DNA of 63,380 bases, filler included, from Sphacelaria rigidula (taxonomy: Eukaryota), in the NCBI GenBank assembly GCA_964200075.2. It is 8 parts of 8 records of this genome, joined end to end, with 100 filler letters (N's around TTAATTAATTAA, not from the genome) between each part and the next. Parts side by side here need not be neighbours in the genome. Positions count along the whole stretch, not along the records: positions 39,677 to 47,511 come from CAXNAA020013308.1; positions 47,612 to 55,446 come from CAXNAA020013309.1; 6 more parts are not named here. One strand, given 5' to 3'. The notes under the pieces are model-generated. The model did not search any database, had not been told where the DNA came from, and saw only the letters and a list, made by a program, of their open reading frames with translations. The position numbers were made by a program, and so were the translations under genes. Numbering within the stretch: position 1 is the stretch's first letter; each line of letters begins with the position of its first letter. Shown here piece by piece: positions 16,213-61,400 of the stretch.

Positions 16213-16846
16213 GTTTTCGATCGAAATTGTGCGATGGAAAACAAAAATCACTAACCCTCACCCTAACCGTCGTCGCAAATTGTAAAGATGGTTGAAATCA
16301 CGACCTATCAGATCGAGATATTTGTTTTCCACCGCACATTTTCGATCGAAAACCAATGTGCTAAGGCAGACTTTAATGGGAGCCGTTCAAAATTCCTGTT
16401 CAAAACTGCCTTTTTGGCCCTTCTCCGTCGTTTTCCGCCTGAAAAAAGGGCTAGGCGGATGTTGACGCCTTGGAATGACTTCCTCTACTCATTGAGGTCG
16501 TGTCAGGGCAACTTTGCATTTCTCGCTGGCCGCACTTTCACTTTTGGCCAAACACGGATTTTCAACAAAAAACGGTCGAGCGATAAAAAAACCGGAGAAA
16601 TTTTTGATCACCTGACTGTTTTTACTGAAAATATGTGTTTGGCCTCATTTGACCAAAAACTAAAGTGCGGCCAGCGGGAAATGCAAAGTTGCCCTAGAAC
16701 GGTCGCAACGAGTAGAGGAAGTCATTCCAAGGCGTCAACATGCATCTAACCCGCTTTTCGGGGGTAAATCGACGGAGAAGGGCCCAAAAGGCAGTTGTCG
16801 AGAGGAATTTTGAACGGCTCCCATTAGAGTTGGCCTAAGATACGTC
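16194..16846. mobile_element. MITE with a CCCTAA motif, whose right TIR is interrupted by a Tourist-like element
   Basis: GACGTGTCTTAGCACATTGGTTTTCGATCGAAA versus TTTCGATCGAAAACCAATGTGCTAA[insert]TAAGATACGTC. Confidence 0.8.
16365..16835. mobile_element. Tourist-like (PIF/Harbinger) foldback MITE
   Basis: TAA|GGC...GCC|TAA duplication, and the element is palindromic over most of its length. Relatives at 45841-46318 and 63335-63380. Confidence 0.85.
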
Positions 16847-23288: not shown

Positions 23289-23706
23289 GGATGGTGAGAC
23301 ACCCATGAGGCAGTGTATGAGACGTGGCTGTTTCTGGAAGTGGCGATAGCAGGCAATAAAGCAACTCATTGGAAGCTATCATCCAAATGCAAGATATCAG
23401 TAGGCTTCGGGGTTAACAATCTTGGCAAGATGCAGCTACCGCTTAGTGTTTACATGGTGAGGCACCGATGAGGCAGCGTATAAGCCGTGGCTGTCTCAGG
23501 AAGTGGTGATACCAAAAAATGAAGCAACTCATTGTAGGCTGCCATCCAAATGCGAGATAAATCAGGACGCTCCTGGCCGAAATCTTAGCAGGATGCAGCT
23601 CACCCTTCATGCGACTCGCCGAACACACCACGGCGCTTCGCGCTGGGTGATTGAGTGCGAGCCTACTCCGGCGAAAATCCGGTGTGCTCCGTCCCGGCTT
23701 TGTAGG
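23289..23706 (+). mobile_element. Family A, longest copy (internal duplication of about 165 bp), 3' end lost at the contig end
   Basis: Matches 43540-43750 and 51625-51886. Begins about 10 nt after the C-run at 23269-23278. Confidence 0.8.
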
Positions 23707-24246
23707 NNNNNNNNNNNNNNNNNNNNNNNNNNNNNNNNNNNNNNNNNNNNTTAATTAATTAANNNNNNNNNNNNNNNNNNNNNNNNNNNNNNNNNNNNNN
23801 NNNNNNAGGTCGACGAGATCGTGTCTGATTCAGCTGGCCTCTCGATAGACTCTCCCCAACAAACCACGGTCCCGGACAAGAGCAAATGGAGAAACAAAAC
23901 ACGAAGACGGGACGGGGGAAGCGAAAAAGCAAGAGAGATCGGAGCCGGAGTAACTTTGTTCGGTTCGTAAAAGTATGTCCATGTGTAATGCACTCCGAGA
24001 GAATATGAAGAGCAAAACACTGTCGCGTGTATATCCAGCCGCTCCGGGGATGTCGGAGAGCCTGGTGTGTACTGGAGCAGACAACACCATGGTGACTGTG
24101 TTTTGCTCCTCTGTTTCTTGGTTATGCAGAGTCCACCTTTATCGGCCTGCCGTCTGTGCATCATCCCTGCTCTGCCATGAAGCTTCAGTGTTGTGTTTCC
24201 ATCTACTGAATTGACTGGCGTGATTCGTTCGGAATATGAACGGACC

Positions 24247-28722: not shown

Positions 28723-29063
28723 GTCGCCCCGGTGGGTCAGTTGGTAACCTCGAAAACATTGGGGGGGATTATCGTAGAAAGTGTCCTGAAGGTTGGGTCG
28801 TTGGTTTGAATCTGGACAGTGGATAGCGACTACCATGTCGTGGGTACACAACATTCGATTTAATGATCGACGAGGGAAAGGGACTGCTGAACCCCTCTCG
28901 CGATAAAAAAACAAGGCAAGCACCGCAGAAGGAAGGTGGAGAGCGAAAAAAAATGAACAACTCATGTGTTGTCCTTCCCCATGTGTGACCCCGGCTGATG
29001 CGCCCACATATGCCGTAAGGTGTAAATCGGCGACCAGAATAGATGGGACGACAACACACACAC
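28723..29063 (+). mobile_element. tRNA-derived SINE (family B) with a MITE end fragment inserted in its head
   Basis: GTCGCCCCGGTGGGTCAGTTGGTAACC head, shared body and (CA)n tail. Insert GGGGGGGATTATCGTAGAAAGTGTCC at about 28760-28786. Confidence 0.85.
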
Positions 29064-29202: not shown

Positions 29203-30263
29203 GATGTCGTGATAGCCCTGCCTCCCGAAGTGGCTGTTTTGGGGAGGCAAAAACTACATGTAAATCGAAATGAAAGAAGCGGGGCATACCGAGCAGCTGA
29301 GAACTCTCGCCCTTGGGATCGTTTTGGCCAACGTCGCCTATACATGAGGCCCTTCATGCAGTCTGGAACCAACGATCGTGCGCTGTATGGTCATTTTCTT
29401 CGTGACTCTTTCGGGGCTGGTGGGTCGGGGGGCGCTATATCGCGGCATCACTCAAATGCATGTAAAAGAGACGGGGGTGCATTAACCCGTTTACCCGCAA
29501 CGTGGGCGATCTGGGTCTCACACTCACCACATATACTCGTCAAAGGAAATGATGATGCCGATTCGCCTATGCGTGCGTGTACTATTACCACTGGCATATA
29601 TGCGGCCTATTGTTTTAGTACAATGCAGTACAATACTTGAGGGGACCTCACTCAATGTACGTACAACAATGGCGGGTACTATGGACATGCCGCCAACCCT
29701 AAAGCTAACCCTAACCCTAACCCCGACGAAGGCATACCGGGAACTCTCGGGCAAGGGGGGGTGCCAAGTATTTTTCAGCAAAGTGTGCGTTGCCAGAGCT
29801 CAAGTCGACGCCTCTGAGCCGATTTTGGTCTAAAACACGTTCTGGACGAGCTGGGTCTGCTGTTATCACGACATTTCTCTCGTATGGTCATCACGTGCCG
29901 CCGTGCATTGTTTCCAGTACATCAACAGCAGGAGAGATATCGCGGTTATGCGGAACAATGTGGTACATGAACATGACCGTGCTGTTGTGACGATAATTGA
30001 CAAAAAAATTGACGAAGGACACTTTCTACGATACTCCCCCCCCAGAAGTGCCTGGGTTGGGGAGGCAAAATCTTCACGAAATCGAGATGAACGAAGCCGA
30101 GCACAACGAGCAGCTGGGAATTTCCGCGCTTGAGTTCGTTCTAGCCAATGTCGTCCATATGAGGAGCTTCATGCAGCCTGAACCAAAACATCAGTTTTGC
30201 ATGTCCATTTTTGTGGTGACACCTTTGGGCTGGTTTCGGGGGGGGGCTATCGTAGGAAGGACC
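29203..30263. mobile_element. Two related MITEs of about 245 bp (29203-29449 and 30017-30263), plus a further right end at 7937-8000
   Basis: Shared interior (GGGGAGGCAAAA..CGAGCAGCTG..CTTCATGCAG) bounded by CGATA/TATCG-type inverted ends next to C and G runs. Confidence 0.7.
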
Positions 30264-31528: not shown

Positions 31529-31641
31529 GGATGTGAAAACCTTTGTGCTTACCAAGGGGCCCTACAGACTGGAAAACGGTGTTCACCCCCCCAATTTCCA
31601 GTCTGTAGGGCCCCTTGGTAAGCACAAAGGTTTTCACATCC
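31529..31641. repeat. Perfect 47-bp inverted repeat (short foldback MITE) at the contig end
   Basis: GGATGTGAAAACC...CTGGAAA and its exact reverse complement enclose a loop of about 19 nt. Confidence 0.9.
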
Positions 31642-33460
31642 NNNNNNNNNNNNNNNNNNNNNNNNNNNNNNNNNNNNNNNNNNNNTTAATTAATTAANNN
31701 NNNNNNNNNNNNNNNNNNNNNNNNNNNNNNNNNNNNNNNNNTAATAACAGAACTGTATCTCTTATATGCCCTTCACCCATATGTCATAATCCAATCACCA
31801 TATCTATTTCCAACTCATCCAGGCCTGTCCGCGTGTATCCAACATTGAGTGTGAGTATACTCGATTAATCGGTGTGCATCGAAGGTTTGAACATGTCATT
31901 GCCCGCGACAGCACGAGCAACAGGTAGACGAGGAGCCCCACGGCAATCCTGCTGTCTGTCTTTGGCGCCAAGCGGGACTCAAAAACCAAGGTCTCGGTCT
32001 ACGTGTTGGGTGCAGGGGGGACGATACGGAACAGGAGGTACTGCCGACCCCATTTTCGCAGGACTAGGCAACGCGTGGAGCACGAAGGATCTACCCGGTA
32101 TTTGCTCTGGGTAGCTGGGTAGTCGGCTGTTGCTGCTCGGTGGTTGGTGTTTGTTCTGTCCATGCTCAAGCAGACCGTGTTTTTGTTCTCCTACTCTATC
32201 GACACACCAAGTATAGTCACAGATAATCTCGTACGGAAATACGTATGGCCTGCAGCACTTACGAACTTGGACAGGTTCGTATTGCTAGAGCGCGCATCAC
32301 TTCTATGCACTTACCCTTTTGGTACGTGATACACCACACGCAAGGTACAGGCGTCGCAGGGGGAATACACTCGTGTCGGAGTTATTTCGGTTGTAAGATC
32401 TTGTCCGCGTATTCACCGCCGACACAGAGCGTATAGATCGACCGATTGACATACCGGTTTGCCCCCCGGCAAACACCGCCTCTCTACTACGTACGAGAGG
32501 CAACCTGAGGGAGAAAAAGGGTATGACGGCGTTGTTGTTCAGAAAGGCTATATACATTTGGACGTGCATGTGGACGACATAAAAGGCCTGCTTGAGTGGA
32601 AAGAGAAGGAGATGACCGATGCGCAAATCGTTCACAGGATCGAAGCATTTATCCGCGAAAAAATGGGAAACAACTACGCCAGCGTGGGGAAAACAGGATA
32701 TGGTTGCAGTCAATCCGATCCGCAAGTCCTTCGGTCAGAATATGATGGAGAGACTCTGCAGAGCTGGCAGGGTCGAGATTGCTGCACAGACAAAAACATA
32801 CCGGCTGGAAAAGCTATGGATTCGCGTACAGGGTTCAGGGTCGTGCTTCTGTGGCAAACAAGGGGAGCGTCACGAGTCAAACACCATGTAAAGCCCCTAA
32901 AACCCCGATCCAGGCTCTCACTAATCTTTCAATAGTAGAAAAAATATCAGCCCCATGTGCTTCCCTCGATCCAGGCCTTAATATATGCTGCAAGCCATAC
33001 ACAAAAAAAAGAATGAAGAATGTGTCCAGCCGCCACACCCCGTTCAAAAAGCCAGGCCAAATGAATTTGGTCAGCCCTTAAAGTACCAAAAAACAAATGC
33101 AGTCACCCGTGTATATACACCCCCATGAAAAAAACGAAACATGCCCTAATTAATGTGTCAAGCTGAATAACAACGTGTTTCGCGCCCGTATACATAACCC
33201 CGCTCAACCCCCCACAGGCAGGCCCTTAGCCCCATAAAAAATAATAGGCAGCCGCCCGTGCTGCCCCCGCTGCAGTATATGAGGCTGGTGTTCAGGCGCT
33301 GTTGCCACCAAGGTCTCGTGCCACTCTCGCCCTTGTTCTCCCCGGGGACGCCAAACACCCCTCTTCCTCCGCATGAACGGGTGAAGAAAGCCCGGCCTGG
33401 CAATACATCTGCGGCGGAAAATATTGGGGGCGGTGGGGTATTTACGATTTAAGTTTGTGC

Positions 33461-38029: not shown

Positions 38030-40749
38030 AAGAAACTGGAAATCAGGCTCAGCCTGAGTTTCTTGTTTTTCTCCAACACTAAGTGTGGCTATTGCTCAGC
38101 CATCGTTTAGGATTTCGTCTGGCGCCGGCCGCCGATCCTATTTTCTTGAGTCAAATTGCTTAATTTCTGAAAAATTTGAGCCTCGCTTTCTCGAAAATGT
38201 GTTCCTTATGAGTGGACCGACTGTCACAGAGTATCTTGATTACCCGCTCTCTGCAGACCGCGCCACTGCTTCCATGAACACCACCCCCGGTCGCTCACAA
38301 CCCACGATCTCCTCACTCTCTTCACTAGGCAGGATGGATCGTCAACTCGAGGAGATTGGTCGAGCTCCGTGCAACGACGATACTGGTGTTTGTAGGTCTT
38401 TTTTTCACATCGTGAAATGTGGTACCTTGCGTTCTGGTTATGTTTCCTCTCGAAAGCAACACGTTCGACTCTTTCTGTCGTGTGTTGATCCTCTATTTGA
38501 CACACACCTCGGAAAGGGCGGGGACTAATTCGGTGCCAAGTAATCTTCGGTTTGCGATACGTACTCGATGTCCGTTCCTTAAAGGCTTGTTTCATTTCTG
38601 AACTGGTGTTGGTCGAGAACTCATGCCCCTAGGCTTTTATTTACTCTTGTTGTGTTTCGAGTGACATTAATGAAGCTGTCTAATGCACAACGTTCGAACT
38701 CATGACCTTGTCTGATCGAGCGGCAGTAGAAGGGAGTTGCTAAAATGGGTCATCTGCGCAGTTCCATTTATGGATCCGTTTCGTCGTTGACGTGGCCCCG
38801 ATCAGTACCAGACTAGAGCTATGGTACAATCTCCCAGTTCTGCCGTGTCCGCTCGTTTGGACAAAGTTCAGACATGCGTTCAACCTTGTGTATTGCACAG
38901 CTCTTTAGGTAGTCGTGCGAGCAAACAAACACTTGACCGAACTCTTGAAAAAAACTAGATATTTTAACGGGCGCGAGAAGCTCAGTCCGTTGAAAGATCG
39001 AGTATGAGTGCGCCGGTGCCCCCCTCGCGCGGGGCTCAGCCTCTCGAGTGACGTCTTGCGTTGGTGCGCTCTGCTAGGTTGTCGTTGTCGACACCGCTTT
39101 TTGGGTGTTGTTTTAGCGATTGAGACGACGCCAGCTACATATGGATCGAGCCGGGGTGTACGAGATCGCGCGAGCGAGGAGGACGAGGGCGCTGTGACAA
39201 CGGCGACGACGGCTGTGGCTGGCTGCGCACCTACTTCTGGGTTTGGCTTGTGTTAGAGTTAGAGTATTCCCTTGTGGTGTCCTCCAGTAACTTGTTGGTG
39301 CAATGCGACGGCACGTACTTGAAACATGCAAGACTTATGTAAGCATTTGTTCAAATTATATCAAGAATCATAGTCGCTTCACCAATGTGACCAAAACAGA
39401 TTTCTGTGGCTGGTCAGACTGTGTGGGGCAGGTCCAAACATCGCCGGAAGAAGATATAACCTATCTTCACCATTGCCTGCAACGCGCGGACCCAGCAATC
39501 GACAGCCGATCCTAATTTTTGGGGTTGAAACATAAAATGAGGTTGAAGTCCCATCCCTCCATTGCAGGGAAGATACNNNNNNNNNNNNNNNNNNNNNNNN
39601 NNNNNNNNNNNNNNNNNNNNTTAATTAATTAANNNNNNNNNNNNNNNNNNNNNNNNNNNNNNNNNNNNNNNNNNNNTCACTGATTGACCGCTTTTCACTC
39701 TCAATCGTATCATCTACTCTCAATCTCACGAAAACATTGTTACACGTGGAATGGCGCAAAAGTTGCGTGGGTACCCCTTGGACCAGCGATCAAATTTTTT
39801 CTACCGTTTTGGGCAATCAGGCTGGAGAAATCGTGGATTTGGCGATTTTCAGTCGTGACCGTGAACGAATGCGACCGAAGCGGCGCAGCGCGAAACAGCT
39901 ACACACAGGAACACGAAAGCCACGGCCTGGGAATTTTTTCGTCGGAAAATCCGATCTCGCACGGTAAAAGATTGCTCGGATTCACGGCGCTCTTCGTGAA
40001 GTTCGACGACAAGGACATAATTCCTGGTCAGGTGGAGTGATCTGTGTCCGCTGTATCACTGTAGCTGACTCGAAGACTCTCTCGATCGATTTCAAACGCT
40101 GTGACAACATTTCGGTGGAAGCATTGCTGTGACCTCGCTACATCACAAGAGTTTCGGCAAAAGTCAGCGCATTCAAGACGCATAGCTGACCACGGACACC
40201 CCGTGGGATGCCTCAGACTCGGAAGTAAATAGTCGCTCGCGAGTTATCCAGGTACCAGATGCTTCAGCACACCAGCGCAGCAGCCATTTCCTCCGGTTTT
40301 CCACCTCTCAAGATATTGGGTATACCGCGAATGGTGATGACGTCACAACGGGGTGGCACTTGAGTTGGTCGCGGAGCAGTCAATGTGCGGTAATCGATCT
40401 ATCAGGCATGGCAACTGGGTTGGTCGTCCAGCAATATTTGTGCGGTAGTCGGATCAATCAATCTGTCGATACCATGGTATTCCTGGTGGAAGTACGTCTC
40501 CTGTCAAGGATAGCAAACGAGAAGGCTCTCCGTTTGGGACATCTCCGGTAGGGACTGTACATTTGGGCCCAGGCGTTTTCTCATGGAAGGGTTCCTGAAG
40601 TTAGGAGCTGCGCAAGACTATGGACCGACCAGGACAGACTGCCCGTGTTATAAAAAATCCATTCAAGAAATCCTTAGCCCATTGAAATGCTAGTCTTGGC
40701 GGGCTTCCACACACTTCACCAGTCGTTCTTTGGATGAGATCACCGTTTT

Positions 40750-42616: not shown

Positions 42617-43539
42617 GTGAGAGAGTGAGCCATCAGCTTTGCCGGCATGTTTTCGTACGGTTGCTTAGGCGTGATTGAGTGATTTTTTGGTCGATTGGTT
42701 GATTGATTGTTGCACTTTGGCTGACCCCTCAGGGAATTCCCTATCTGGCGCACGGCTGCGAGTGCATGCAAACTAAAACAGGGACTCGTCATATTCCAGA
42801 ATTTCCGGCGGAACTGGTTCTGCGCGTGGATCTTGAAAAATCGGTTGCAAAGTATTTTTCGTCCACCGGTAACCGATTTTGAGTTTGCTCTTGTTGTATA
42901 GTCTGTTCGCCACGAGCGCAGCAACACTGATTTGTGGAACGTATGACGTTCGGGTTCGGCTACAATCCCCAGCGTATACCATTGCATCAGCCACCCCTGC
43001 ATCGACCTCGTGTGCACCTTATAGCGCGTCTCCAGACGATTGCTCGTATTCTAAAAGCCGGCACAAGAGGCAAGAATTCCGGGGTGCACTTCAGAATATA
43101 CCGACTCCTCACGTATTGTAGGTGAACCTCGTCGTGGTGGAACAAAATAACGGGCAATTGATGAAGCATGAAGGACAATTGAGGTCCAGCTTTAGCTTGT
43201 GGTATTAATATGGATGCAGTCCCCTTGTATTTCGTTCGCGATTTTCCATACTCCCAGCCCCCAGTGCGTTTCTTCGACTCATATTCTAGTGCAGCTGGTG
43301 TTTTCATCCTTCATCAGAGAGTGCTGCTGACAGCCCTCTGGCCTAGTCATATATCCACGCCCTACTCCGCGTGTTACGTCTGTTCCGTGTGCTGTATGAG
43401 ATGGTAATTTCCCAGCTGATCTTGTCCAACAGTGGTCACCCAAGCACTTGTTGTACTCCTTTCATGGCCTCTGTACATGTACCCTAATCGGTACATGTAC
43501 CCTAATCCTACCGCCAGCACTCGTACCCCCAACACTAGC

Positions 43540-43750
43540 TCTACCATATGCAAGATAATTAGGACGCTCCGGGCCGAACGAGCTCGGCAGGGTGCATCTC
43601 ACCCTTCATGCGACTCGCCGAACGCGTCGCGGCGCGTCGCGATTGTGAGTGTGTGCCTGGTCCGGCGAAAACCCGGCGTGCTCCGTTACGGCTTTGTAGG
43701 GATGCGAGGTCAATGGTCTCATGACTGGAACATGCACGACCATGAGTACA
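43540..43750 (+). mobile_element. Family A1 copy, 5'-truncated, in an ABC transporter intron
   Basis: Ends CATGAGTACA. Flanked by a decayed duplication: CCCCCAACACTAGC (43526-43539) and CTCAACACAAGC (43751-43762). Confidence 0.8.
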
Positions 43751-43827
43751 CTCAACACAAGCGTGACCATGTCTATGACCCTATCGCTTGACCGTACTGT
43801 CGTGGGTTTGCTCCCGTGGCATTCCAG

Positions 43828-45590: not shown

Positions 45591-45840
45591 GTGCGTATGC
45601 AAAAATAGTTCGTAATGCCAAACGTATCGCCGAACATGATCCAGATGGAACGCTCTGGCCCTCGAGTTTGCGAAATAGGTACAAGCTCTGCGTGTTGTGG
45701 CGCCTAGAAAAGGGTACCGAGTAATTTGTGTGTACAGTGTCTTGACGGCTGCACTGCCGCAGGATTTTGGTTGAGATTGTGCAACAAGTCGCGCTGTATC
45801 TATCCTCTGTATCTTCCGCGGATGTCTAGCTCGCTCCTTA

Positions 45841-46318
45841 GGCCGCTCCTTATAACAGACGAAAATTAAAATCTGCAAAAGTGCCTTTTTGGAGCTTTTA
45901 CGTTGTTTTACGCCCCAAAAGAGAGCTAGGCGGAGTTTGACACCGTGGAATGATTTGCTCTAGTGGTTGAGGCGTTTGCAGGACATGTTCACGTTTTCCG
46001 ATGGCCGCAGTTTCTGTTTTGGCCAAACAAGAATTTTTGTCCAAGAACGGTGAAAAACAGTCAAGCCCAGAGAAATGTGGCGATTTTTTCTACGTTTGAC
46101 TGTGCTTTACTCATCTTGGACAATAATTCTTGTTTGGCCAAAAAGACACTGCGGTCACCGCAAAACGGGAACATGTCCAGGAACCGACTCAACTGGTAGA
46201 GCAAGTCATTCCAAGTTGTCAAACTCCGCCTGGCTCTCTTTTGGGGCGTAAAACGACGTGAAAGCTCCAAAAAGGCACGTTTCCAGATATCTATTCTTGT
46301 CTGTTATAAGAAGCGGCC
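45841..46318. mobile_element. Tourist-like foldback MITE
   Basis: TTA|GGCCGCTCCTTATAACAGAC...GTCTGTTATAAGAAGCGGCC with long palindromic arms. Confidence 0.85.
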
Positions 46319-47625
46319 TCGTCAGCAGGCTATTTCGCTGCTGGCTTCATCTTGCGATTGCTCAAGTCAAAACGGCGTCGCCCGTTTTTGCCGCCGCGCC
46401 GGGGTGATACGCTAGCACAACTTTAGGGCATGTCGTGGGGTCGAGTAGACAGGAAACAATCGTGAGATATTTTCCGATCTCGTTCGTTCGAAAACATGCA
46501 CGGTTCGGACGAATCATCGCCGGTTCGAATCACCATATCCACGATTTTTTCAGGCCTGATCGCTCGAAAGAGAGAAAAAAAGTCTACCGATGATGGTCAA
46601 GAAGGTTCTCACGCAACTTTTGTGCCATTCCGCGTGCCTGGGCTGCGCGTACGTGGGTTGCGACGCTGAAAACACAGCCCAAGGATTGATTCATACGGTA
46701 CAAATCAATCGTACTGAGATCAAGTCATTTCCAGACGGATCATTGATTCGTCCGACCCGTGAAAACATGAGATATCTTAGTTTGCTCAGTGCCGAGTACT
46801 CGAGGTGTTCAGTAGCATGTTCAGCTACTTTGCTGAGTAATTTAGACGTCGCAGTAGCATATTCAACTGTCATGCTGTTGGTTGGACACGACTCGAGACC
46901 GCATGTGTACGAGTATATATATTGTGTTTTCGAATCACAGATACAAAATATGACGCCCTCGTTCGTGCGGTTGGTGTGCGTCAAAGCTTGTTGAACTAAT
47001 GGTGAACTAGCATAGTCGCGGCAGCTGTCACACCGAACGTTGGAGTTGAAGAAACTGTGTTGAGAATGCTTGGAAACCCGCTGCCGACAGTACAGTCGTG
47101 CAATAGGCACAGCTCGACCCCATAGCGTTGATTTCATGGTGGATGTTTTAAACGCATATCGAGCTGTTCCCCGCCTTTGAATTTCGTCGTAGGGTTTTTT
47201 GCACGGGCTGCAGCATTGTATGAAAAAAACTGTTCGGAAAGTGCTTCGAACACTGCTCCGGGCGAAGTGGCAGTCAAATAGAATTAGCTCGACGCCAGAG
47301 CGTTGGCCGTCATCGCCGATTCTTGTCACGGGCCCGGCTGATGTCCATTGCTGCATTGACCTGTGGGGTCTTTCATGCATATCAATATTAAGCGACGAGG
47401 AAATATCTGTATTTTCCGGTGAATATCCGACTATCTGTTTTCATTTTTTTTTTCACACTTTGAACCCCTTCCCTTCCTCGGGATGAGTCCCTGGTCTTAA
47501 GGGATCAACCCNNNNNNNNNNNNNNNNNNNNNNNNNNNNNNNNNNNNNNNNNNNNTTAATTAATTAANNNNNNNNNNNNNNNNNNNNNNNNNNNNNNNNN
47601 NNNNNNNNNNNCCCCCCTATCGTAG

Positions 47626-47689
47626 CTCCGTCTCGAAAGGGATGCGTGGTCAATGGTCAAATGACTAAGGCAAGCAACAAATGAGTACG
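47626..47689 (+). mobile_element. Family A2 copy, 64 bp, inserted in the TIR of a Sola-like MITE
   Basis: Exact 14-bp duplication CCCCCCTATCGTAG at 47612-47625 and 47692-47705. Confidence 0.85.
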
Positions 47690-49962
47690 CCCCCCCCTAT
47701 CGTAGGATGACTCGTCTGATGAACACAGCGCTACGGTACCGTATCGACACTGGCTCCTTCAAATACCGTAACACACATACCTACACTATGATCGGTTTGA
47801 CACCGACCTGTCAAACAATTGGTATAGGTGACACGCGCGCGACGCGTTGCTGTTGCTGTTTCCTATTGGGATATACTTTCGGTACTACAACGCCGGTGCA
47901 ATGAGCTGGTTCTGGAACCAGCCAAGGTTGGTTTCATGACACATTTGTTCATGTGAACATGCATATGTGCGGACAGATATATGCTGACGCACGGGTACTG
48001 GTGGTCGAGTGTGTGTGACTGCCAGTCCATGCTGCGGGCAGCTGCGTCGCCGCCGCTTGCCCTCACTCTACATATGATCCCTCTATCATAGGATCGACTC
48101 CGTCAAGATACTCTCCAACAACACAATAGAGAAAACTATCCCTCTTTAGCCACGGGCTGAGGTACTGCGTGACTTGCACTTAATCTAAACTGCATTGCGG
48201 AGTGAAGTAAACGACATGAGGGTAGTGAGAGAGCCGGGGGATGTTGAAACCAATGGCATCCTCGATAGTGATGGTTCTCATGGTCGACAGAGGAGATCCA
48301 GAACAATCAGTGCAGTAGAGCGACGTAGTGCCGGAGTTCGAAGAGATCGCCAGCACATCGGAAGTTAAGCAAGCTCGCGACGCGGGGGGCAACGGGGCCA
48401 GACACGACCGAGCTAGGGGCTTTGTCCCCGAATGTGAGTCAGTATCTATGAACGATGCAAGTAGGAATGTGTCAGGAAAGACGCAGAGTATGCTCGATAC
48501 AGACATGAGTTGGTCAACTTCGCGAGGGGCGAAGGAAGAACTTGTGACTGGGTGTTTACCATAGCCGACGACAATTTGCACGACGTAGGTGTCGGTGACC
48601 CTGAATTATCACTGGGATACCTTGAAACTAGATACCGCAAAGACACAGAGGCAGCCCACGTGAGGGCGAGACGGATTCTTGTTGCCAGTTTAGGAGGAAA
48701 GAGGAAGCAAGATATCGTGCTCAGAGTTCACTCACCTGGTGCGGTCTGGAGAAAACTCGCGCATGTCTTCCGCCCCAAAACAAATGGGGCAAGAACCGCT
48801 TTGATGTAAACATTCGATGGAGTCAAGATTGGTGTTCGTGACAATTCAGAGCAGAAGCTACTCGAGATGGAAGAAATTGCACGAGACCTGAACTCATACG
48901 AGGGACATCAACCCCTAAGCGAAAATCATATCATCTTGAAAAACCTCAACCACTGGCCGTACGAGTATCACGTCCAGAAGCAGTTGCTGGAGGATCGAGA
49001 GGGGTCGCTGACACGGGAGGTTGTGCTAACCTCGGTCCGAAAGCGCTTCGAGTCGGCTACTTTGAAGCAAAAACTTGCCCGGGGGAAGAAGTCATCCCCG
49101 GGTAACTAGGCCCTCCTCGCCAGGAGTGGAACCGGAAATCCAAGCGGTGCCCATCGCAAGGGAAAATCGGGAATACCCCAGAGCTCCGGTCAAAAAAAGA
49201 TCGGGAGCCAGAGTTCAAGTAGCTCTAGGTCAACTTCGTCGAACGGAAAACCGGCGGCTGTGAAGCTGCTCTGCTGCCACGTTTGCGAAGAGGACACGAT
49301 GCACCGCGCCAGGGGCTACCCGAAGAGATACCGCGGCAGCTGCGGTCAACAGGGGCACAAGTTCTAGGACTCTACGAGATCGACCACGAAGAGTGAAGAA
49401 GTGGCGATGGCGATGGGTGCGGCCGATGACAGCAACGAATCCTTCATTTGCTTGAAACTCAGACGGGGAGGCTTTCACCTCTCTTGACACCACCATCAAC
49501 GATAAACCAGATGAGTACGCATTGTGTGTTGGGCAGAGGGATGATATCCAGCAAAGTGAGGGCGAACCGTGGGTATTTGACACGGGGGCTACCCAGCACT
49601 TCTCCCCCGATTCCTGTGGGATGATGGAGTACAGAGAGTGTCAGGGTAAGGTACTACGGTGCGCGGGTGGTAGTACGTACCCGATCGTAGGCAGAGGAAA
49701 TGTTTCTCTTGCTTTCAGATCTAACGGACAGGATGTGGTCCTCAAGTTAATGGATGTTGATCATGTGCCTGATATCCGTTATCACCTCTTGTCTCTCACA
49801 AGGATCCAAAACAATGGACACACCTACACTGGTTTTCGTAAAGATTTCAGGGTAGATCTCATTTCAGGCAATACACTCAAAAATAAGCGGACAAACTCGT
49901 CAACTGAAAATGTACACCCGCCGCCTTGACCAAAGTGGTATTGACAACAGTGCTTCGGTATA

Positions 49963-50408
49963 TAACACGGGATCTTAAAAATTGGGGATGGATCTTTTAT
50001 CGGGGATGAGAAGCCCGGAGAATTAAAATCTTCGTATCCACATCAAATCTTCAAAATATTGTTCCATTTCTCCACCTTATGATAGCTATTGACAACTGCT
50101 ACACGCCATAAACAAAATGGATCTCGATAACCGTAATGTTTGGGTCCTGGGTAAAGAGCCAATTTTGGGGAATTTCGGGTGTCCGAACGGACGCCAAATG
50201 GTTCCGAAATTGGTTTTTCCTCTAGGGACCCGATATTTCGGTTATCGAAATCCAAATTTCTAGGACGTGTAGCAGTTTTCAATAGCTATCAGTAGGCGAA
50301 GAAATTGAACCATATTTCGAAGATTTGGTGTGAATAAGAAGATTATAATTCTCCGGGTTTCTCATTCCCAATAAAAGGTACATCCCCAATTTGTAAGATC
50401 CCGTGTTA
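49963..50408. mobile_element. Foldback MITE inserted in copia pol
   Basis: TA|TAACACGGGATCTTA...TAAGATCCCGTGTTA|TA with imperfect arms of about 145 bp. Confidence 0.9.
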
Positions 50409-51405
50409 TATGCTGTGATTGCCCCGGGGGCTCCGCCTAGCCCTCCGATCGTTGCTGAAAACGATTTTCACTGTGCCCACGCCCGCGTTCGCGAGGACTT
50501 ACTGCGAAAGACCGCGAAGCAGCTGGGAGTGCAGCTGGCCGGGGAGTTGCAGCCCTGCCGCGGTCGCTCGGACGCGGAGGGCCTACGACGGCCGATTCCA
50601 AGATCGACGCACACGAGACAGGGTAAGTCAGCGTCTAGGGTGTTTGTAGATATTCCCGGCCCGAAACCATTCAAGTCTCACGCGGGAAAGTGGTACACGA
50701 TGATAGTCCGAGATAATTACTCACGGTTCACGCGAACCTGTAACTCCTCCGCACGAAGGGATAGGCAGAGCGATACTTGACAGAACACATCGTAGGGACC
50801 TCTCCAAGAAAAAGCGAGATAGTCCGTAGCGAGGACGGGGGTGAGTTCTCGGAGGATGCATTCGGTGAACTGTGCGACAGGGAGAAGATCAAGCAGGAAA
50901 AGACAACTACCGACTCACCCCAGTTCAACGGCGTTGCAGAGCGAGCGTTGGGTATAATCGAAACAGCTGGCCTTGCTGCAAAGATCCAAGCACTTGGGCT
51001 GTATCCACGACAGCGTATCCCAAACGATGACAACCTATGGGCTGAACAGGCACACTGGGCTTGTCATACCCTGAGCCGCACCGCTACCTCGGCTAACCCA
51101 AAGCGCAAATCACCACATTAAATGTGGTATGGATCACCACCGGACGGTAATCTCATTCCGTTTTCGAAGCCTGGCTTCTGTAGTAAGACGGGGACAAACA
51201 CATACAACCGAAGGCGGAAAAATGCTGGTATTTGAGCCCAGCTCCAGGCTTCCCGCGTGACGCGATGCGAGTTTTGACGGTACGAGGATCCATTACTGTA
51301 ACAAGACATGTAACATGGGCACGTGCCTTCGCGACTCCATCCCGCACACTACAGAAAGTCATCCAGACGCCGGGCGAGCCGAAGGATTCCAAAGTCGATG
51401 CAGGC

Positions 51406-51494
51406 CAGGAAGTGAGCGAGTAACGGATGGAACATTCGATAGTGAACACTTCGTGCACTGCCGAATGTTTCATTCTTCCCTCGTTCACTTCCTG
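51406..51494. repeat. 89-bp hairpin (mini-MITE) within the copia element
   Basis: CAGGAAGTGAGCGAG..GGAACATTCG / CGAATGTTTC..CTCGTTCACTTCCTG. Confidence 0.75.
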
Positions 51495-51624
51495 TCTAGC
51501 GGTTCCTCAAGCGCACCGTCCTCCCCGCCGAGTTCCGTAGGTCGGTGAAGGGGAGCGGCACCGCAGATCCCCGTCAGTACTGGAGGGGGCAAAGTGCCTT
51601 CACCGTCTCCGCGAGGGGGGGGGG

Positions 51625-51886
51625 TGTACTCCTGATCATGCATGCCATAGTCATAAGACCATTGACCTCGCATCCCTACGAAATCGGGACGGAGCACGCC
51701 GGGTTTTCGCCTGACCAGGCTCGCACTCAATCACCAAACGCAAAGCGCCGTGGTGTGTTCGGCGAGTCGGGGAGCTGCATTCTGCTATGATTGTTTGGCC
51801 CGAAGCCTACTGATTATCTTGCATTTGAATGACAGCCTACAATGAGTTGCCTTATTATGTGGTATCGTCCCTTCCAGGGACAGAGC
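51625..51886 (-). mobile_element. Family A1 copy inserted in the copia element
   Basis: A G-run at 51615-51624 abuts the 3' end. Flanks are TCTCCGCGAGGGGGG and TCCCCGCGATGGGGGG. Confidence 0.85.
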
Positions 51887-53989
51887 ATCCCCGCGATGGG
51901 GGGGGAAGAAGGCGGGGTGATACCAGAGATCCCCGTTCCAGAATTTGTCAACGGAGGGGTGAGGGGGAGCTGGAATCATCATCATCATCTACATCAACGG
52001 CAGCGCTAACGCCGACAGCAACGCCAACGCCCACATCGGCATCGGACACGCCCTTGTCACCCGCACTGTCACCCTCTTCAACGGGTCCCTCGCAAGACGG
52101 CGGGGGGGTCGGCGACGCTCCTCAACTCCCGGGAACCGAGCGACGCCGTCTCACGTGGGCCGAAGGGTTGCCGGCGCCAAGGGCGGGGCGTACGAGGAGC
52201 CAAACGCGCGAAGCCATGGGTTCAGCACGCACAGATGGCGAAACAGTGGTGGCTAGCGGAGTGGAGGAGATCAGAAAGGAAGCGGGGATGGAGCTGGCGG
52301 GGATGGCCGAGGATAAATGCTCAATCGTGGGGATGATCAACGCGGCAGCAGGATGTGAGGGATAGGCTTCGGCATAGACTATCCAGGCAATGCTCAGTAA
52401 CGTAGCGCAGGTAACATGTGTATCTTCTTGGTGTTTGAGCGGAGCAACCGCTGTCGGTTGAAACGTCGAATATACGAACGTTCTAGGGTACGTCTAGAAC
52501 AAGTACTTCATATACTGTGAATCGGTCTGAGTGACGGTCAGGTACGATCGAGAATCTATGATAGGAGCAAGATACGAACTCTTCAGAAGAGGAGCACAAG
52601 AGACCTCACGAGCATATTGCGAGCCCTACTCTTCCACTCTTCACTTCTCCAATTTCTCAACTGGACTTCGCTAGTCCATTGTACTCTACAAGTCTGTGTT
52701 GACCATAAGCACCCATTTAACACCAAATATTTCGTCTTGCACAGTTGAGCCACAGCTCGCACGGCATCTCAACATCTGCCAGCGTGAGCCTACTGCAGCC
52801 ACTTGTGCGTGTACAGAAACACATCCAGGACACAGGACAGGTGGCAGGACACGGCCCAAACCTCTCGACCCGAAACGGGTTGGCCGAAAACGAGCTCTTT
52901 TTTGTTTTATTGCTGAGGAAAACAGGGTAGGGCAGCCTGACTTCGGTTTGCGTTAACCGGTTGGCCGGCATGTAAGCGAAGTAGTGGCAGCACCCACCAG
53001 TATGGATGACACAGCAAAATCAGAGTTTCGAGAGGCATGGTTTGGCGCGATGCAGGCCGAACTGGGAGGTGGTGAAAAGGCTGAAACATTCTCGATTGAC
53101 CCTGTACCGCAAGGAGTAAACGTGATTCCAGCGAAGTGGGTTTTTAGCCTAAAAACCGACGCAGATGGAATTTTAACGAAGGCAAAGGCTAGGTTGGCAG
53201 CACGAGGATTCGGACAACGTTTCGCAGTCGACTATTCGAGACTTGCGCGGCAACGCCCCCCATGGCCTCGATTGAACTGGTCATGGCAGTGGCAGTTCAG
53301 GAAGAGTAGCCGCTGTACCATTTCGACGGAACACAGGCTTTTGTTTAATCGAAGATGGACACTGACGTGTACATGAGGCTGCCTGAAGGTTGCTACGTTT
53401 TGACAGATGTGAGCGTTAAGCTCGAAACATCCATTTTCGGGATCAAGCAAGCAGGCAGGCATTAATCACGTCCTCTGTGCCAAAACGTACTGGAGGGCGT
53501 CGGGATGGTGCAGTGTGAGGCTGATCCTTGTGGTTTCAATATGGAGGATGCAGAAGACGTGCGTATGATATTAGTTGTCCATGTGGACGACATACTCATC
53601 AGTGGTACTGAGGAAATGTGCGGAAGGTGGGCAAAATTCTGAACGATAAGTTCCCCACGAACGATCTCGGATAGGTTACATGATGCATGGGGGTGTGCAG
53701 TAGATAGAGATTGAGATTGAGGCACGCTGTCGGTGACGCAAACCACGTTCACGGATACGCTCCTCCAGCGTTTCGAGGTGGGGGGATACTCGGAAATCCC
53801 TGCCTCTGCTTCTGTCCAGTTGGGGACGACAGCGAACGAAGGCACAGAGGTGAATAGCCCATATCGTAACGCAGTGGGGGGGCTGATGTGGCTGGCAACA
53901 GTCACCAGACCTGAAGTGGCGAATGCAATACGAGCCCTCGCTCGCCAGTCACATGACCCATGCGAGAGGTACTGGGAAGCTGTGAAGGT

Positions 53990-54190
53990 TGTAACGCGTG
54001 AGAGGACCGCGTGCTTAGAGGACCGCGCCGTAGTTCAAAACACCCAAGGATCGATGTTTTTCAAAACCAATCGGGCCAGTACCTGCAGGTACCACGCCCC
54101 TGACCATAACCCCAACACTAACCCTAACCCTAATCCTAACCCTGGCGATGTTCAAACTCCGATGCGGCCCTGGTCCTCTCACGCATTACA
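53990..54190. mobile_element. TGT...ACA MITE with CCCTAA repeats, inserted at the end of the copia RT
   Basis: TIR TGTAA(C/T)GCGTGAGAGGACC and internal CTAACCCTAACCCTAATCCTAACCCT. It interrupts YWEAVK...YLKRTKE. Confidence 0.9.
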
Positions 54191-55384
54191 AAAATGCTAT
54201 TTATCTCAAGAGGACAAAGGAATTTGGATTTACGTTGAAGAGAGATCACGGCAGGACTTCAGTCCCTTGTGATGCAGACTACGCTAAGAAGGAAACAGAT
54301 GGGCGTTCAGTCTTGGGGGTAGCTGTGATGTACGGAGGTCTGGTAGTGTCGGGCAACGAGTCGTACGCAACACTGCGTGACTCTATCAACCACGGAGGTG
54401 GAGTATGCCGCAATGGCCGAGGGGGCAAAGGAGGGACTGGTCGTGAAGGAAGTGTTGACGTTTCTGCGACCTCAGACTGTGTCGGGGTGTGGGGAGGACC
54501 ATGAAATTGGTTTGTACGAGGACAACGAGGGAGCGAAGGCTCTGGCCGAAAATCCCCCCAGTTCCGAAATGAGTAAGCCCATCGACGTGAGATATCACTT
54601 GATTCGAGAGCATGCTGATATTTTGACGAACCCTCTCTAGATCAACTGGTTTGCGAGGCACAGACGGGTTTTGATAAATTCGGAACATGACAAGTAGACA
54701 AGGTTTTGTGTGTACCCTTGTACTACAGTAGCTCTGGGTATTTTCAGGTCTTAGTGATGCATTGATGCGCGTATTGGGTTAAGCCACCCACGCTACTTTG
54801 AGAAGCATGAGTTTTTGGGGCGTTTTCTGACATGACGTGAATCTGCCTCGACCGGCGTCCATGGATTATCTACACGAAGCACCAGCAGTTGAGGGGAGTT
54901 TTGTTTTGCTCGGATGGCAAGGTTTCCCCCTTTTAATCTTTTGTTTTTAGAGATAGCCGCGACGACTGATGCACCAGTCCAGAGAGAGTGTTCATGTGAA
55001 CGAGTACACTGAGTGAACATGCATATGTGCGGATAGGTTTATGCTGACTGACGCACGGGCACTGATTGTCGAGTGTGTGTGACTGCCAGTCCATCCTCCG
55101 GGCAGCTGTATCGCCGCCGCTTGCCCTCACGTTACATCTGACCCCTTTATCATAGAGTCGACTCCGTCAAAGCATCCCAAATAACACAAAAGGTAAAACT
55201 ATCTATCCTTCGCCACGGGCCACGGAATAGGTCCTGTTATTATGTAAACATGCTATCGATTCTATGAGATGAATCATTCATCAGCAAATTTTGGCAAACA
55301 GGCAAATTTGGTTTTCTTCACAATACTTGATTCGTAGATTTTGAGGAGGTAACAGTAGGGATACTTTTTCGTGGGGGGGGGGGG

Positions 55385-55436
55385 CGTACTCATTTGTTGC
55401 TTGCCTTAGTCGTGGTACCATTGACCACGCATCCCA
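55385..55436 (-). mobile_element. Family A2 copy near the contig end
   Basis: (G)11 then CGTACTCATTTGTTGCTTGCCTTAGTC..CCATTGACCACGCATCCC. Confidence 0.8.
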
Positions 55437-55549
55437 TTCTTTGATGNNNNNNNNNNNNNNNNNNNNNNNNNNNNNNNNNNNNNNNNNNNNTTAATTAATT
55501 AANNNNNNNNNNNNNNNNNNNNNNNNNNNNNNNNNNNNNNNNNNNNTGT

Positions 55550-55610
55550 TCCCTCCCCAAAGGGAGTGGTGGTCAATCGTCAAATAAATAAGGCCACCAA
55601 AAAACGAGTC
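55550..55610 (+). mobile_element. Family A2 copy (low-quality sequence) at the contig start
   Basis: AAAGGGAGTGGTGGTCAATCGTCAAAT..GAGT followed by a long C-run. Confidence 0.6.
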
Positions 55611-56348
55611 CCCCCCCCCCCCCCCCCCCCTTTTTCGCAGTCGTGCACTTGACCCCTGCACCTTCCCCTCCCCCCCCCCCTTGTTTCGTCTCTGTTTCAA
55701 TAATGTATGTGTAATTGCAGGGAAGAGTCTCACCTCTAGTTTTCAGGATTGGAGTAGAGTAAATTATCTCTCTCAGGCGCTCGCTGTTGTTGAAGTCTTC
55801 TGAACACACACAGGACATCGTTTCCCTCTCCCACGTTCTGTGTAGTTGTACTGTGGTACAAAGAAATTTAGTTCTTTCGTTGCTGCGTCGTACGGTACTG
55901 TTGATGTGTTTGTAAAGACCAAGCATCGAAACGTCCCCCGCCCGCCCCTCCCTGCGAGTCCACAGTCAAGACTCCCGGGCTGGTCTGGCACTCACCATTC
56001 AGGTATGGGATCAGTGCGCCCGCTGGCGTCTGACTCTGGATCCTCGACTTGATATGCCTTTTTAGTCAGTTTTGTCGAACTCTTTTTCACGCCTTCGGGC
56101 GACAGGAGGCAGGAAACATACTACACTGCTGAGAGTTGATCGTAACGAAGTGTCCTCTCAAAACTCTGTTTGATGTTTGAGTTGACCACAGGGCCGCGGC
56201 GACGATCCTCACGAACCGTTGTACAGTCTTCCCCCCTTCCCCGCCTTCCTCCTCCCCCCCTCCGCGACCTCCCGCGCGTCTACATCTCATCGCCAATTTT
56301 TCTCCTCCCCGGCGACATGTTCGGCTGTCCTTTTTTTTTGTCGTGCGG

Positions 56349-58455: not shown

Positions 58456-61400
58456 CTATGGAAAGGTGGTGGCGAACGCTAACAAAAGCCCATTCGCCTC
58501 GTCAGAATCCTGAAGCTTTTCGATAGCCCTGTGCGCCATCCTCCGAATGCCCTCGCCGCTTACTTCCATAATTCGCCCGATCTCTTTGAACGTAGGCGGC
58601 GCAGTTGCTGCTGAAGCTTTCCCTGTGCCTTTTCTGCTGCCGGCGACCGCTTCACCATTCTCCCCGATGCCAAACCGCAGTCGTAATACATGCAGCTCTT
58701 CAGGCGTCAAACATTCACGCATTACTCTCAACATATCATCTCGCACGAAGCTCAACTCCGCTAAACGCGGCCCCTCTCCGCCCCACGGCCGTTGGTCTCC
58801 CCCTGGTAGTCCTGCACCCGCGCTAGCGTTTCCCCCTGATCTCATGTCCACGCTCTGAGAAACTGCCAGGTCACTTATGTCAGCCAGGTTTTTCTGTAAC
58901 GGTATAGTGCGGCGGTAGAGGGCAACGGTTGCTTCGGGTATGCTGAGAGCGAGGGCGAGTTGGGCATCCGTTGGCGCGGGCGCGCCCGGGGCAGAATCGG
59001 CCTGTAAAGCGCGCTCGACCGCAAGAAGGCGCATCGTTGTGTCCTGGGCGTGTACTGGAACACGTATCAAGCTGTCCTTGTTCGCAATAGAGCGGAGGAT
59101 GGAGGCCTTTATTCGAAATACGGCGTACGAGCTGAACCTGCAGCCCTTAGTAGGGTCGAAATGGACCACCGCTTGCATGAGGCCCAAGGTACCCTCTTGC
59201 ACAAGGTCGTCGTATGTCAGAGTGTTGGTCATCGCCGTGTACCTGGTAATCGAAGCCAGGGGAGGGAGAATTGTGGTGTGGGAAATTTTGCACGGAACTG
59301 AGACAGATCGACACTTGTGTGCGCGGGTCGTGTAAAATAGCGAGGAAACAAATGAAAAAACGTGCGGTAGGTCGGGGGGATGGCTAGGATTGCGGCAAAC
59401 TTGAGAGACTGCATCAAGAGCGTACGCTTTAATAACTTCCGAGGTTGTGTGGGTGCGTGTAGGGATCACGGTGGGAGCACCAAGCACGAGTATCAGCGTG
59501 ACTCTCGACAACTCGATATGTGATTTTCAATCGCGATCACGTGGCAAGGGTGTCAAGATGCCAGGAATCCTGGATGAAAGAAGAGTGCAGCGGTACACCG
59601 AGATGACCACCAGCTCGTCATACTATGCTCGCCGTGAAAATTGTCTGCGTGTATCAGGTGGTGTCCGTATCGGTGGTGGACAGGGTCTGTTGAGCAAGTG
59701 AATGAACACATCGAGGTCTCCATTTCACGAGACAGGCGTGGTTTCAGCTGGTGATGACTCCCTCGATCTAGAAATAACTCATCCTTCCTTGATGTGACAC
59801 GGACAAAATGCACTATAGTCTGGGCCGATGCACTATATCTGTAGTACAGTCGGAGGCGCAGACAGTGGCGAGGACCTAACCCACAAGTCACGCTCAGTAT
59901 ATCATGCCACACTCAAGTGTCACCTCCACTATTTTAGTCTAAAGTAGCATACGGTGAATCATCATTACCATTTTGGCCGGTCGCCCCGGTGGCTCAGTTG
60001 GTAACCTCGAAATCTTCTGCCGGTTGGGTCGTGGGTTTAATTCTCGGAGCGATCTGGGATTTTTTCTCACACCATGTCCAACAGTGGAGAGCGACCATGT
60101 CGTGGGTACACAAAATTCGACCTCATGGTCGACGAGGGAAAGGGACTGCGGAATCCCTCTCGCGATAAAGAATAAAAGCAAGCACCGCAGAAGAAAGATG
60201 GGGTACTAGAAAGAAATGAAAAATAAAAAGCTCCTGTGTTGACCTTCCTCCTGTGTCACCACGGCTGGTGCGCCCACATATACCGGAAGGTGTAGATCGG
60301 CGCCCAGATTAGATGGGACGACGACACAACAACAGGATAAAACGGCAAAAAATCACAGGTATCGAATGTACGACGTCATGTCTCTCGAGATGCACACACC
60401 TATGGGCCACACTCCGCACGAGCCCTTGGTTGGCAAGAATCAACTTGCGCTCGGCTTTGCGCCCCTCCTTCAGAGCGCCGAACAGTTCGTGTGTGCTGGC
60501 ATGGCCCGCGGCTACCGCCCACTCTTGAACTGTAACGGGCCGACCCTCTCTAGCTTCCAATTCTACCTGAAGATTTTGCACCCGTCGGTGCGCCAAGATT
60601 TCGTCGCACAGCTCTCTTTCGTCCTGTTGAGTCAAGTAGATTTCGTGAGGGTGTCGGTTCGAGGTGGTTTAGTTGCGTATGAGGACTCTAATCAAAAACA
60701 GTATTCCTCTGGTTGCATGTCGTTGTTTGGGGCCCTGACATTGAGACAAGGGTGCACTCTTTGAATTGCACCTCCCAGACGCTGTTGCGTTACTTGCGTG
60801 TGACGGTGACGCAACCGTATTTTCAAACTAGAATCTGTGCAGGTTTTAGAGCCAGGTGGGTGATGTTGCGACGCCACTGTACTACTCGTACAGTACAAAT
60901 ATAAAATGTGTACTGTCTGTGCTACTACTGTTGAGTCACCCCTTGTATCTTACTGTACATCAGCCCTCAGTAGACCGACTTGCGTCTACGGTACTCGTGA
61001 CGTTGTACTGTACTGACCTCTATACTGAGACATTTTAAGTCTCTCCAACTTTCAAGCCTTGGCGGCGTCCCGTGCTCCTGTTGGCGTCCACTGCTCCCCA
61101 TAACCCCCAACTCGCCGTTTCCCGACTTAGCGCCGAGAAGCCCGGACATTGCTTCCAATCCCACCGCCACAATCGCGCTAGATTGGTCAGGAGCTCGAGG
61201 TCGTCTGGGTCGGGATGAATTAGGGTTGCAGCTACTACTTCGGCTGACACCGCTGCCCCCGCGAGCAAGGGAACGCCGGACGGCTGAAAGACCACCGAGA
61301 GAAAATCCCGACACAAATGCGGTATCTCTGCCGAACGATAGTATCGCCGCAGCCGCCGCGGCGATGGAGCAACCTCGACATCGAGACAGTCGTGTCACAG

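Follow-up and report, generated by a model that had tools for sequence, protein, structure and literature searches.

Family A of a Sphacelaria rigidula window: probable 3' ends of an endonuclease-reverse transcriptase LINE and of a non-coding partner at C/G homopolymer tracts

The window analysed here is a stretch of 63,380 bases from Sphacelaria rigidula (assembly GCA_964200075.2), and its subject is family A, a set of eight short dispersed repeats that a preliminary description had taken for a retroposon-like family directed to poly(C) tracts. Family A is very probably the 3' end of an abundant long interspersed nuclear element (LINE) encoding an apurinic endonuclease-type (APE) endonuclease (EN) and a reverse transcriptase (RT), together with a non-autonomous partner, inserted through target-primed reverse transcription (TPRT) at (C)n.(G)n tracts. 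As judged from sequence, one subfamily (A2) is the terminus of the autonomous LINE, consisting of the final ~21 codons, a TGA stop, GTACG and then (C)n, and the other (A1) appears to be a non-autonomous, non-coding element of ~470 nt or more that borrows the LINE tail. The host would be a brown-alga-like stramenopile, and the element type a LINE with a single open reading frame (ORF), of the kind curated as RTE-X in Ectocarpus.

The window is composite: seven regularly spaced 100-base linkers (N44 TTAATTAATTAA N44) separate eight pieces of 7834-7836 bases. Self-BLAST of the window and alignment recovered all eight copies previously noted, which form one alignable family and fall into the two subfamilies A1 and A2 (Table 1). 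A 66-nt profile of the tail matched all seven tail-bearing copies (E 1e-22 to 7e-15), and no other match in the window lay below E=1. The seven visible 3' ends align at a single position, reading GAGTAC(A/G) in five copies and a degenerate form in two (c2 and c8). Long C-runs adjoin five of these tails (Table 1), the c2 tail adjoins an interrupted C-rich stretch (15682-15704), and the c4 tail adjoins a decayed CTC at 43751. A run of C8-C21 or a C-rich stretch is therefore found behind 6/7 window tails, as previously described, and it is also found behind 3/3 copies from metagenomes. The other end had been described as truncated at variable points. This holds for the four biological 5' ends, which give lengths of 52, 64, 211 and 262 nt, but not for the copies at 1-53, 15705-15771, 23289-23706 and 55547-55610, which are cut by piece ends and whose truncation there is therefore artificial.

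The identity of A2 was revealed by public metagenome contigs, which were scanned with the most conserved 20-nt box of the tail and yielded 69 loci. Three of these, L011, L018 and L050, are true A2 copies from marine-metagenome contigs of three independent assemblies, and none of the three includes the 5' junction. The remaining 66 loci were rejected as conserved bacterial coding sequence, in which the likeness ends at the 20-nt box (flanks ..ATGGGATGCGTGGTCAATGGTCC(N)GG..) and looks coincidental. L011 is 100% identical to window positions 47625-47697 over 73 nt, and matches the window at tails only. On the minus strand of this contig (697-4455), a frame of 1253 aa, still open at the contig end, reaches into the repeat, and its product (P0121) contains an Exo_endo_phos domain at 64-285 (E 3e-11) followed by RVT_1 at 634-883 (E 8e-33). 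The C-terminus of the frame (..GCVVNGQMTKASNK*) lies inside the repeat, 5 nt short of C8; at the nucleotide level the ORF ends in ..NGAPSRKGCVVNGQMTKASNK, and its stop is the TGA of ..aaTGAgtacg, five bases ahead of the C-run. L018 and L050 have an ORF end identical to that of L011, followed by C11 and CCTC7, respectively. Given that the EN-RT frame ends inside the repeat, A2 is the 3'-terminal coding part of an autonomous LINE whose 3' untranslated region (UTR) spans 5 nt. The A2 copies of the window are accordingly LINE copies 5'-truncated to 52-67 nt, with c2 and c8 also cut by piece ends.

These results revise part of the preliminary description and bear out the rest of what it said on the partner. 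Its core, a retroposon with a fixed 3' end, genuine 5' truncation and duplications that take in the C-run, is supported. The mobilising EN/RT partner that was thought to be absent from the window is located in the metagenome contig L011, as the 1253-aa Exo_endo_phos and RVT_1 frame, and the upstream extension that had been proposed as a search for an RT/endonuclease ORF leads to an APE-type EN-RT frame in 3/3 extended copies and to no Penelope-like GIY-YIG. The view of the family as non-coding and devoid of an ORF is retained for A1, in which there is no ORF of at least 90 aa, and is abandoned for A2, the C-terminal coding end of the LINE. The domain order of an APE-type element without long terminal repeats (non-LTR), with the EN upstream of the RT, is found on the metagenome copies and not on the short copies of the window. 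A Penelope-like element was rejected, as the endonuclease is of the Exo_endo_phos (APE) type upstream of the RT rather than a GIY-YIG domain downstream of it.

Relatives of the LINE protein include P0122 (1360 aa, 91% identical) and P0123 (1328 aa, 74%), in which both the EN-then-RT order and the C-terminus are conserved. Proteins of Ectocarpus sp. are 59-62% identical and end in ..RG(R/H)VVNGLTAK, and there is also a weak match to Branchiostoma (25% identity, E 5e-39). Additionally, in full-length relatives an N-terminal region of ~100 residues is conserved upstream of the endonuclease (residues 1-105 of both P0122 and P0146). This region is common to this lineage and Ectocarpus, and has no Pfam match in P0122 or P0146.

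Subfamily A1 is alignable with A2 over the last ~65 nt only, and elsewhere has no similarity to L011. The sharing is strongest in a box, GGGATGCG(A/T)GGTCAATGGTC, and in the end, ATGAGTAC. The longest copy, c3, contains an internal tandem of two ~154-nt units (23291-23444 and 23454-23607) that are 79% identical, and no ORF of at least 90 aa is present in 23289-23706. No head resembling a tRNA, 5S or 7SL RNA was found in A1: tRNA prediction returned 0 tRNAs in the window, and the best Rfam match in 23200-23706 has E=0.74. A1 thus lacks the RNA polymerase III (Pol III) head of a short interspersed nuclear element (SINE) in the strict sense, and its true 5' end may lie past the copies seen. Presumably, A1 is copied in trans by a LINE protein that would recognise the shared tail.

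Direct duplications flank the insertions. The pair around c5 (47612-47625 and 47692-47705, C6+TATCGTAG) is exact, with 8/8 identical positions behind the run, and the pairs 51606/51887 at c6 and 43526/43751 at c4 match behind the run at 8/10 and 8/9 positions, respectively. This agrees with the earlier observation of a duplication that starts inside the C-run and extends 8-10 nt past it, exact at 47612 and near-exact at 51606/51888 and 43526/43751. Furthermore, a run of at least five C's ends 8-10 nt upstream of 4/4 visible 5' junctions, for which the chance expectation is ~1e-10 given the window's own run density. In the mechanism proposed as the most parsimonious for such insertions, the bottom strand would be nicked at the G-run, the 3' end of the G-run would pair with the terminal C's of the RNA and prime cDNA synthesis, and the top strand would be cut 8-10 nt past the run. 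A top-strand cut at this distance would leave the run and the 8-10 nt duplicated on both sides.

Comparison of occupied sites with related unfilled ones indicates what was present before insertion. The host of c5 is the terminus of an inverted-repeat element, and the unfilled paralogues of this terminus, C11+TATCGTAGGATGACTC (19869) and C4AC4+TATCGTAGGATGACTC (19654, reverse complement), have nothing inserted between TATCGTAG and GATGACTC. The 5' flank of c3 reads CTGA-C10-AGGGATCCAG, and a paralogue at 44487 reads CTGA-C7-AGGGGTCCAG, with divergence beginning at the start of c3. As the unfilled paralogues of the c5 and c3 hosts carry the run, the C-run pre-existed in at least two targets. The c6 copy sits in a decayed copia element, between the Pol_BBD and RVT_2 matches. 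The preliminary description had assigned the C-runs to target DNA rather than to the element; the first half of this statement is correct for two targets, but the opposition is drawn too sharply, given that every copy examined carries a run. Among 15 listed joints of 746 in public contigs aligned to piece 7, no empty allele was found.

The abundance and arrangement of the family were assessed in contigs of four public runs (two studies) aligned to piece 7. Family A is very abundant: its bins reach a summed word depth of 0.04-6.1 million, with a single-piece depth of 3-218, values that do not represent copy number. Beyond the C12 at 55373, 108-429 contigs per run extend on the plus strand as G16+, after which their sequences part (agreement 0.40-0.50); the run is thus a general feature, and the flanks have no relation to one another. 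On the upstream side of 47625, 98-304 contigs per run go on with LINE sequence (..GGAGTAGGAACGGT), and in two runs C's form a plurality further upstream. Opposite-strand joints connect 47625 to 55373 or to 51616/7 in 2-59 contigs per run, with the joint between 47625 and 55373 present in 59, 41, 2 and 12 contigs of the four runs. The joints are read as a tail, a C-run and the 5' part of the next copy, that is, as copies arranged head-to-tail.

The most serious alternative to insertion at existing tracts is that the C-run is purely an element-encoded tail, similar to poly(A), so that the true duplication is the 8-10 nt behind it and the family has no preference for C-tracts; C-runs upstream of the copies would then be the tails of older copies or coincidence. 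The presence of a run on every copy and its very variable length (C8-C21 in the window and a plurality of G16+ in those 108-429 contigs per run) would fit this account, as would the common head-to-tail copies and the annotation by Ectocarpus curators of (C)n as the element's 3' terminus (PMC12477816). A C-run likewise terminates at least one other family of the window (7315-7369 and 7671-7723), and the runs found upstream might therefore be tails that other elements left. Against this, C-runs lie 8-10 nt upstream of all four visible 5' junctions, for which ~1e-10 is expected by chance, and the 5' and 3' runs are similar in length. The upstream run of c5 is part of another element's inverted-repeat terminus and is kept in two unfilled copies of that element, the paralogue of c3 has the same run with the same 10 nt behind it, and the run of c6 lies within the copia element, flanked by the matches to Pol_BBD and RVT_2. 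A pure tail is therefore considered unlikely, though it retains more weight than the other alternatives.

It is highly improbable that family A derives from a DNA transposon such as a miniature inverted-repeat transposable element (MITE), from a Helitron, from an LTR element or from a satellite, as a fragment with the C-runs lying within terminal repeats. In favour of such an origin, the window is rich in inverted-repeat elements with C/G runs at their termini, and family A copies are found head-to-tail. However, the fixed end extends upstream into a non-LTR EN-RT ORF in 3/3 extended copies, there is one fixed end only, with the other truncated at 52-262 nt, the flanks contain direct duplications, and alignment reveals no matching inverted copy of the end on the other side. 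The MITE, Helitron, LTR and satellite readings were thus rejected, being contradicted by the EN-RT ORF, the single fixed end and the direct duplications. Least probable of all is that sequencing or assembly, for instance through homopolymer errors or chimeric joins at repeats, produced the C-runs and the grouping of copies near piece ends. Such errors might be suspected because 6/16 piece ends lie at most 15 nt from a copy, because piece 7 opens directly with the left duplicate at 47612, and because the public runs include short contigs with breaks at 47690, the start of the C-run. Nevertheless, the tail and C-run occur inside contigs of three independent metagenome assemblies and in four runs of two studies, c4 and c6 lie well inside their pieces with both duplicates included, and the annotation table of a near-complete Ectocarpus assembly lists this same anatomy (PMC12477816).

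Several observations weigh against the interpretation of family A as LINE ends inserted at C/G tracts. The LINE ORF is absent from the window, and the only tie to this genome is the 73-nt identity; a Pfam scan of 201 window frames of at least 90 aa detected no non-LTR RT, the matches being copia Pol_BBD and RVT_2, a sigma-70-like ORF, and a sub-threshold DUF5393 (18.3 bits, cutoff 25). Membership in RTE-X would follow from similarity to unnamed Ectocarpus proteins and from shared anatomy. Visible 5' junctions number only four, and the c7 pair (55373/55437) is weak, matching at only 6/10 positions. The C's of the tail and those of the target are not separable, and in the sole pair with both runs whole, the 3' side exceeds the 5' side by just ~2 C (10 vs 8). 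At c5 the pair is 8 vs at least 6, since piece 7 opens inside the left C-run at 47612. The hairpin predicted in the tail is weak (-6.7 kcal/mol, with a compensatory change at 1/11 pairs), and a recognition signal in the tail is therefore putative. Finally, the 6/16 piece ends within 15 nt of a family A copy (binomial 9e-7) reveal a biased sample: the pieces are not random, and eight copies per 63 kb is a biased density. Despite these points, LINE-encoded 3' ends and a tail-sharing partner at C/G tracts remain the strongly favoured explanation.

The kind of element described here is already catalogued, as the RTE-X LINEs of Ectocarpus and their partners RTEX-N1 and RTEX-N2, matched by annotation and protein rather than by consensus DNA. 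In the curation table, RTEX-1_Ec32 is annotated 'single EN-RT ORF; (C)n 3'' and RTEX-2_Ec32 '(C)n termini/TSD', TSD being the target-site duplication (PMC12477816). For RTEX-N1_Ec32 (607 bp) the entries are '5' head unknown', '60 bp 3' end 83% RTEX-1/2' and, on its arrangement, 'can be present in tandem', and for RTEX-N2_Ec32 (188 bp) 'similar 3' tail' (PMC12477816). A 'C-rich' TSD entry is given in all 6 RTE-X rows and in 0 others of the 11 LINE rows, and the best blastp matches listed for the Ec32 elements are RTEX-1_BF and RTEX-4_NV (PMC12477816). RTE-X is reported as the most abundant LINE group of Ectocarpus, and RTEX-N1 as its most abundant single family (PMC12477816).

Judging from these entries, family A resembles RTEX-1/2 in its single EN-then-RT ORF, (C)n 3' end and C-rich TSDs, and A1 resembles RTEX-N1/N2 as a partner with the 5' head unknown that has the last 60-100 bp alone in common with the LINE (PMC12477816). 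Tandem copies and the highest copy numbers in the genome are further features shared with Ectocarpus RTE-X (PMC12477816), as are a LINE protein that is 59-62% identical and the conserved C-terminal peptide. The two systems differ in species, identity between the sigma-factor ORF of the window and its counterparts in named brown algae being only 52-57%, and A1 differs from RTEX-N1/N2 in its body, which measures at least ~470 nt and contains a 154-nt internal duplication. The C-rich ends appear only in the curation table of the Ectocarpus paper, and the main-text passages available contain no analysis of target choice (PMC12477816). No description of a C-tailed or G/C-homopolymer-targeting LINE was found in the literature searched (poly-C, LINE/TPRT). 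Because this kind of element is present in a curated library, the gain in knowledge is incremental.

Better-known retrotransposons provide partial parallels. In TPRT by L1 and Alu, the duplication begins with A's that pass without a boundary into the poly(A) tail, and the nicked complementary run primes on the tail of the RNA. The insertions described here are similar in that the duplication opens with a homopolymer matching the element tail, in this case C's, with tail and target as inseparable as they are in L1, and in that a non-autonomous parasite would use the same machinery. In contrast to L1 and Alu, the homopolymer is C and cannot be a product of polyadenylation, what the partner has in common with the LINE is a specific 3' sequence and not merely a tail, and the 3' UTR of the LINE is only 5 nt in length. 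Simple-repeat-specific LINEs of the R1 clade have (AC)n, (TC)n, (TAA)n or (ACAY)n as their insertion sites. Family A likewise occupies simple-sequence tracts that resemble the element's own 3' end; however, it belongs to another clade, the R1-clade targets are microsatellites rather than G/C homopolymers, and the duplication here reaches 8-10 nt into unique DNA. As in stringent-type LINE/SINE pairs, the non-autonomous element has the specific 3' end of the LINE, which in such pairs implies recognition of the tail by the LINE protein (PMC4176376). As differences from such pairs, A1 is without a recognisable Pol III head, the shared tail is coding in the LINE, and a stem-loop is unsupported.

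A bolder reading goes beyond insertion at existing tracts. It is conceivable, if still somewhat doubtful, that the LINE lineage is a specialist on G/C homopolymers, whose EN would nick (G)n.(C)n and whose RNA would pair its terminal C's with the freed G-run. As each insertion duplicates the tract, the family would then make its own landing sites. If true, this feed-forward loop would explain the head-to-tail arrays, the nesting of (C)n-ended families in each other and the excess of long C/G runs, and the final 21 codons of the ORF would double as an RNA signal copied by a non-coding parasite. The 62.7 kb of sequence contain 69 C/G runs of at least 6 (22.8 in shuffles) and 22 of at least 9 (0.36 in shuffles). 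Only three long C/G runs follow family A tails.

A second, unrelated family was also observed, at 7315-7369 and 7671-7723. Its fixed end reads ..AGCACTTGA(G/C)GCTGTCAG(CT) and is followed by a C-run, C10 at 7370-7379 and C8TC27 at 7724-7759, and a related motif lies at 55640-55655. As this family shares the architecture of family A, (C)n ends may be employed by several families of the genome.

These elements have consequences for annotation, as thousands of such 50-70-nt fragments would be missed or called 'unknown', when they are truncated LINE ends, each tied to a C-run. They would also offer a natural case for the recognition of a LINE with a 5-nt 3' UTR through its own coding end. In addition, they bear on the role of homopolymers other than poly(A) in TPRT, and on whether such elements promote, in brown-alga-like genomes, the spread of G/C homopolymers, a mutable kind of tract that is difficult to sequence.

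Table 1. Copies of family A, their flanking duplications, and the linkers of the composite window. Subfamilies follow the family alignment; assignments to LINE codons follow the L011 reading frame.
Feature	Position	Strand	Details
c1, A1 tail	1-53	+	cut by window start; then C8 54-61
c2, older A2-type LINE tail	15705-15771	-	86% identical to L011; cut by piece 2 end
c3 5' flank	23269-23278		C10, then AGGGATCCAG
c3, longest A1 copy	23289-23706	+	non-coding body; tail lost to piece 3 end
c4, A1, 211 nt	43540-43750	+	duplication C5+AACACTAGC (43526-43539) vs CTC+AACACAAGC (43751-43762)
c5 5' TSD copy	47612-47625	+	C6 + TATCGTAG; run cut by piece 7 first base
c5, A2, 64 nt	47626-47689	+	final 20 codons of the LINE, TGA stop, GTACG; tail-profile E 1.4e-22
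c5 3' TSD copy	47690-47705	+	C8 (47690-47697) + TATCGTAG; runs on into GATGACTC (47706-47713), host inverted-repeat terminus
c6, A1, 262 nt	51625-51886	-	within decayed copia element; C10 51615-51624
c6 duplication	51905-51888 and 51624-51606		C8+ATCGCGGGGA vs C10+TCGCGGAGA
c7, A2, 52-nt truncated LINE tail	55385-55436	-	C12 55373-55384; 10-11 nt 5' flank left before piece end
c8, old A2-type tail	55547-55609	+	~79-82% identical; cut by piece 8 start; C21 55610-55630
Linkers	7837-7936, 15772-15871, 23707-23806, 31642-31741, 39577-39676, 47512-47611, 55447-55546

The eight pieces have numerous dispersed repeats in common (self-BLAST), indicating one repeat-rich genome as their source. The pieces probably start and stop at assembly breaks in the high-copy family A repeat. 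C/G runs are also seen at piece ends, with GGGGG at the end of piece 1, CCC at the end of piece 6 and CCCCCC at the start of piece 7. The last two hint that pieces 6 and 7 may be contiguous.

Other elements of the window include a MITE-like inverted-repeat element at ~19640-19895, the type that hosts the c5 insertion, with termini that read (C)n+TATCGTAGGATGACTC outward. Related termini lie at 7975-7999, 28745-28767, 30020-30043, 30238-30262 and 47690-47713, and one related type reads (G)n+CTATCGTAGAAAGTGTC; the homopolymer belongs to these termini themselves. The decayed copia-type element that c6 interrupts has its Pol_BBD match at 49456-49926 and its RVT_2 match at 52957-53373 (plus strand), and contains a ~450-bp palindromic repeat (49960-50411) of very high abundance in the public runs, with a summed depth of 0.02-0.6 million. 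Further palindromic repeats at 45840-46319, 16361-16839 and 31529-31641 are 113-487 bp in length with 79-89% identity, and the large palindromic repeats are probably additional inverted-repeat elements. The only clear cellular gene of the window is the sigma-70-like ORF at 58459-59526 on the minus strand, with Sigma70_r2 and r4 domains. A 258-aa protein from public assemblies matches it at 99% identity, and its best named relatives, from Ectocarpus, Hapterophycus, Scytosiphon and Laminaria, at 52-57%; the ORF presumably represents a nuclear gene encoding a sigma factor of the plastid.

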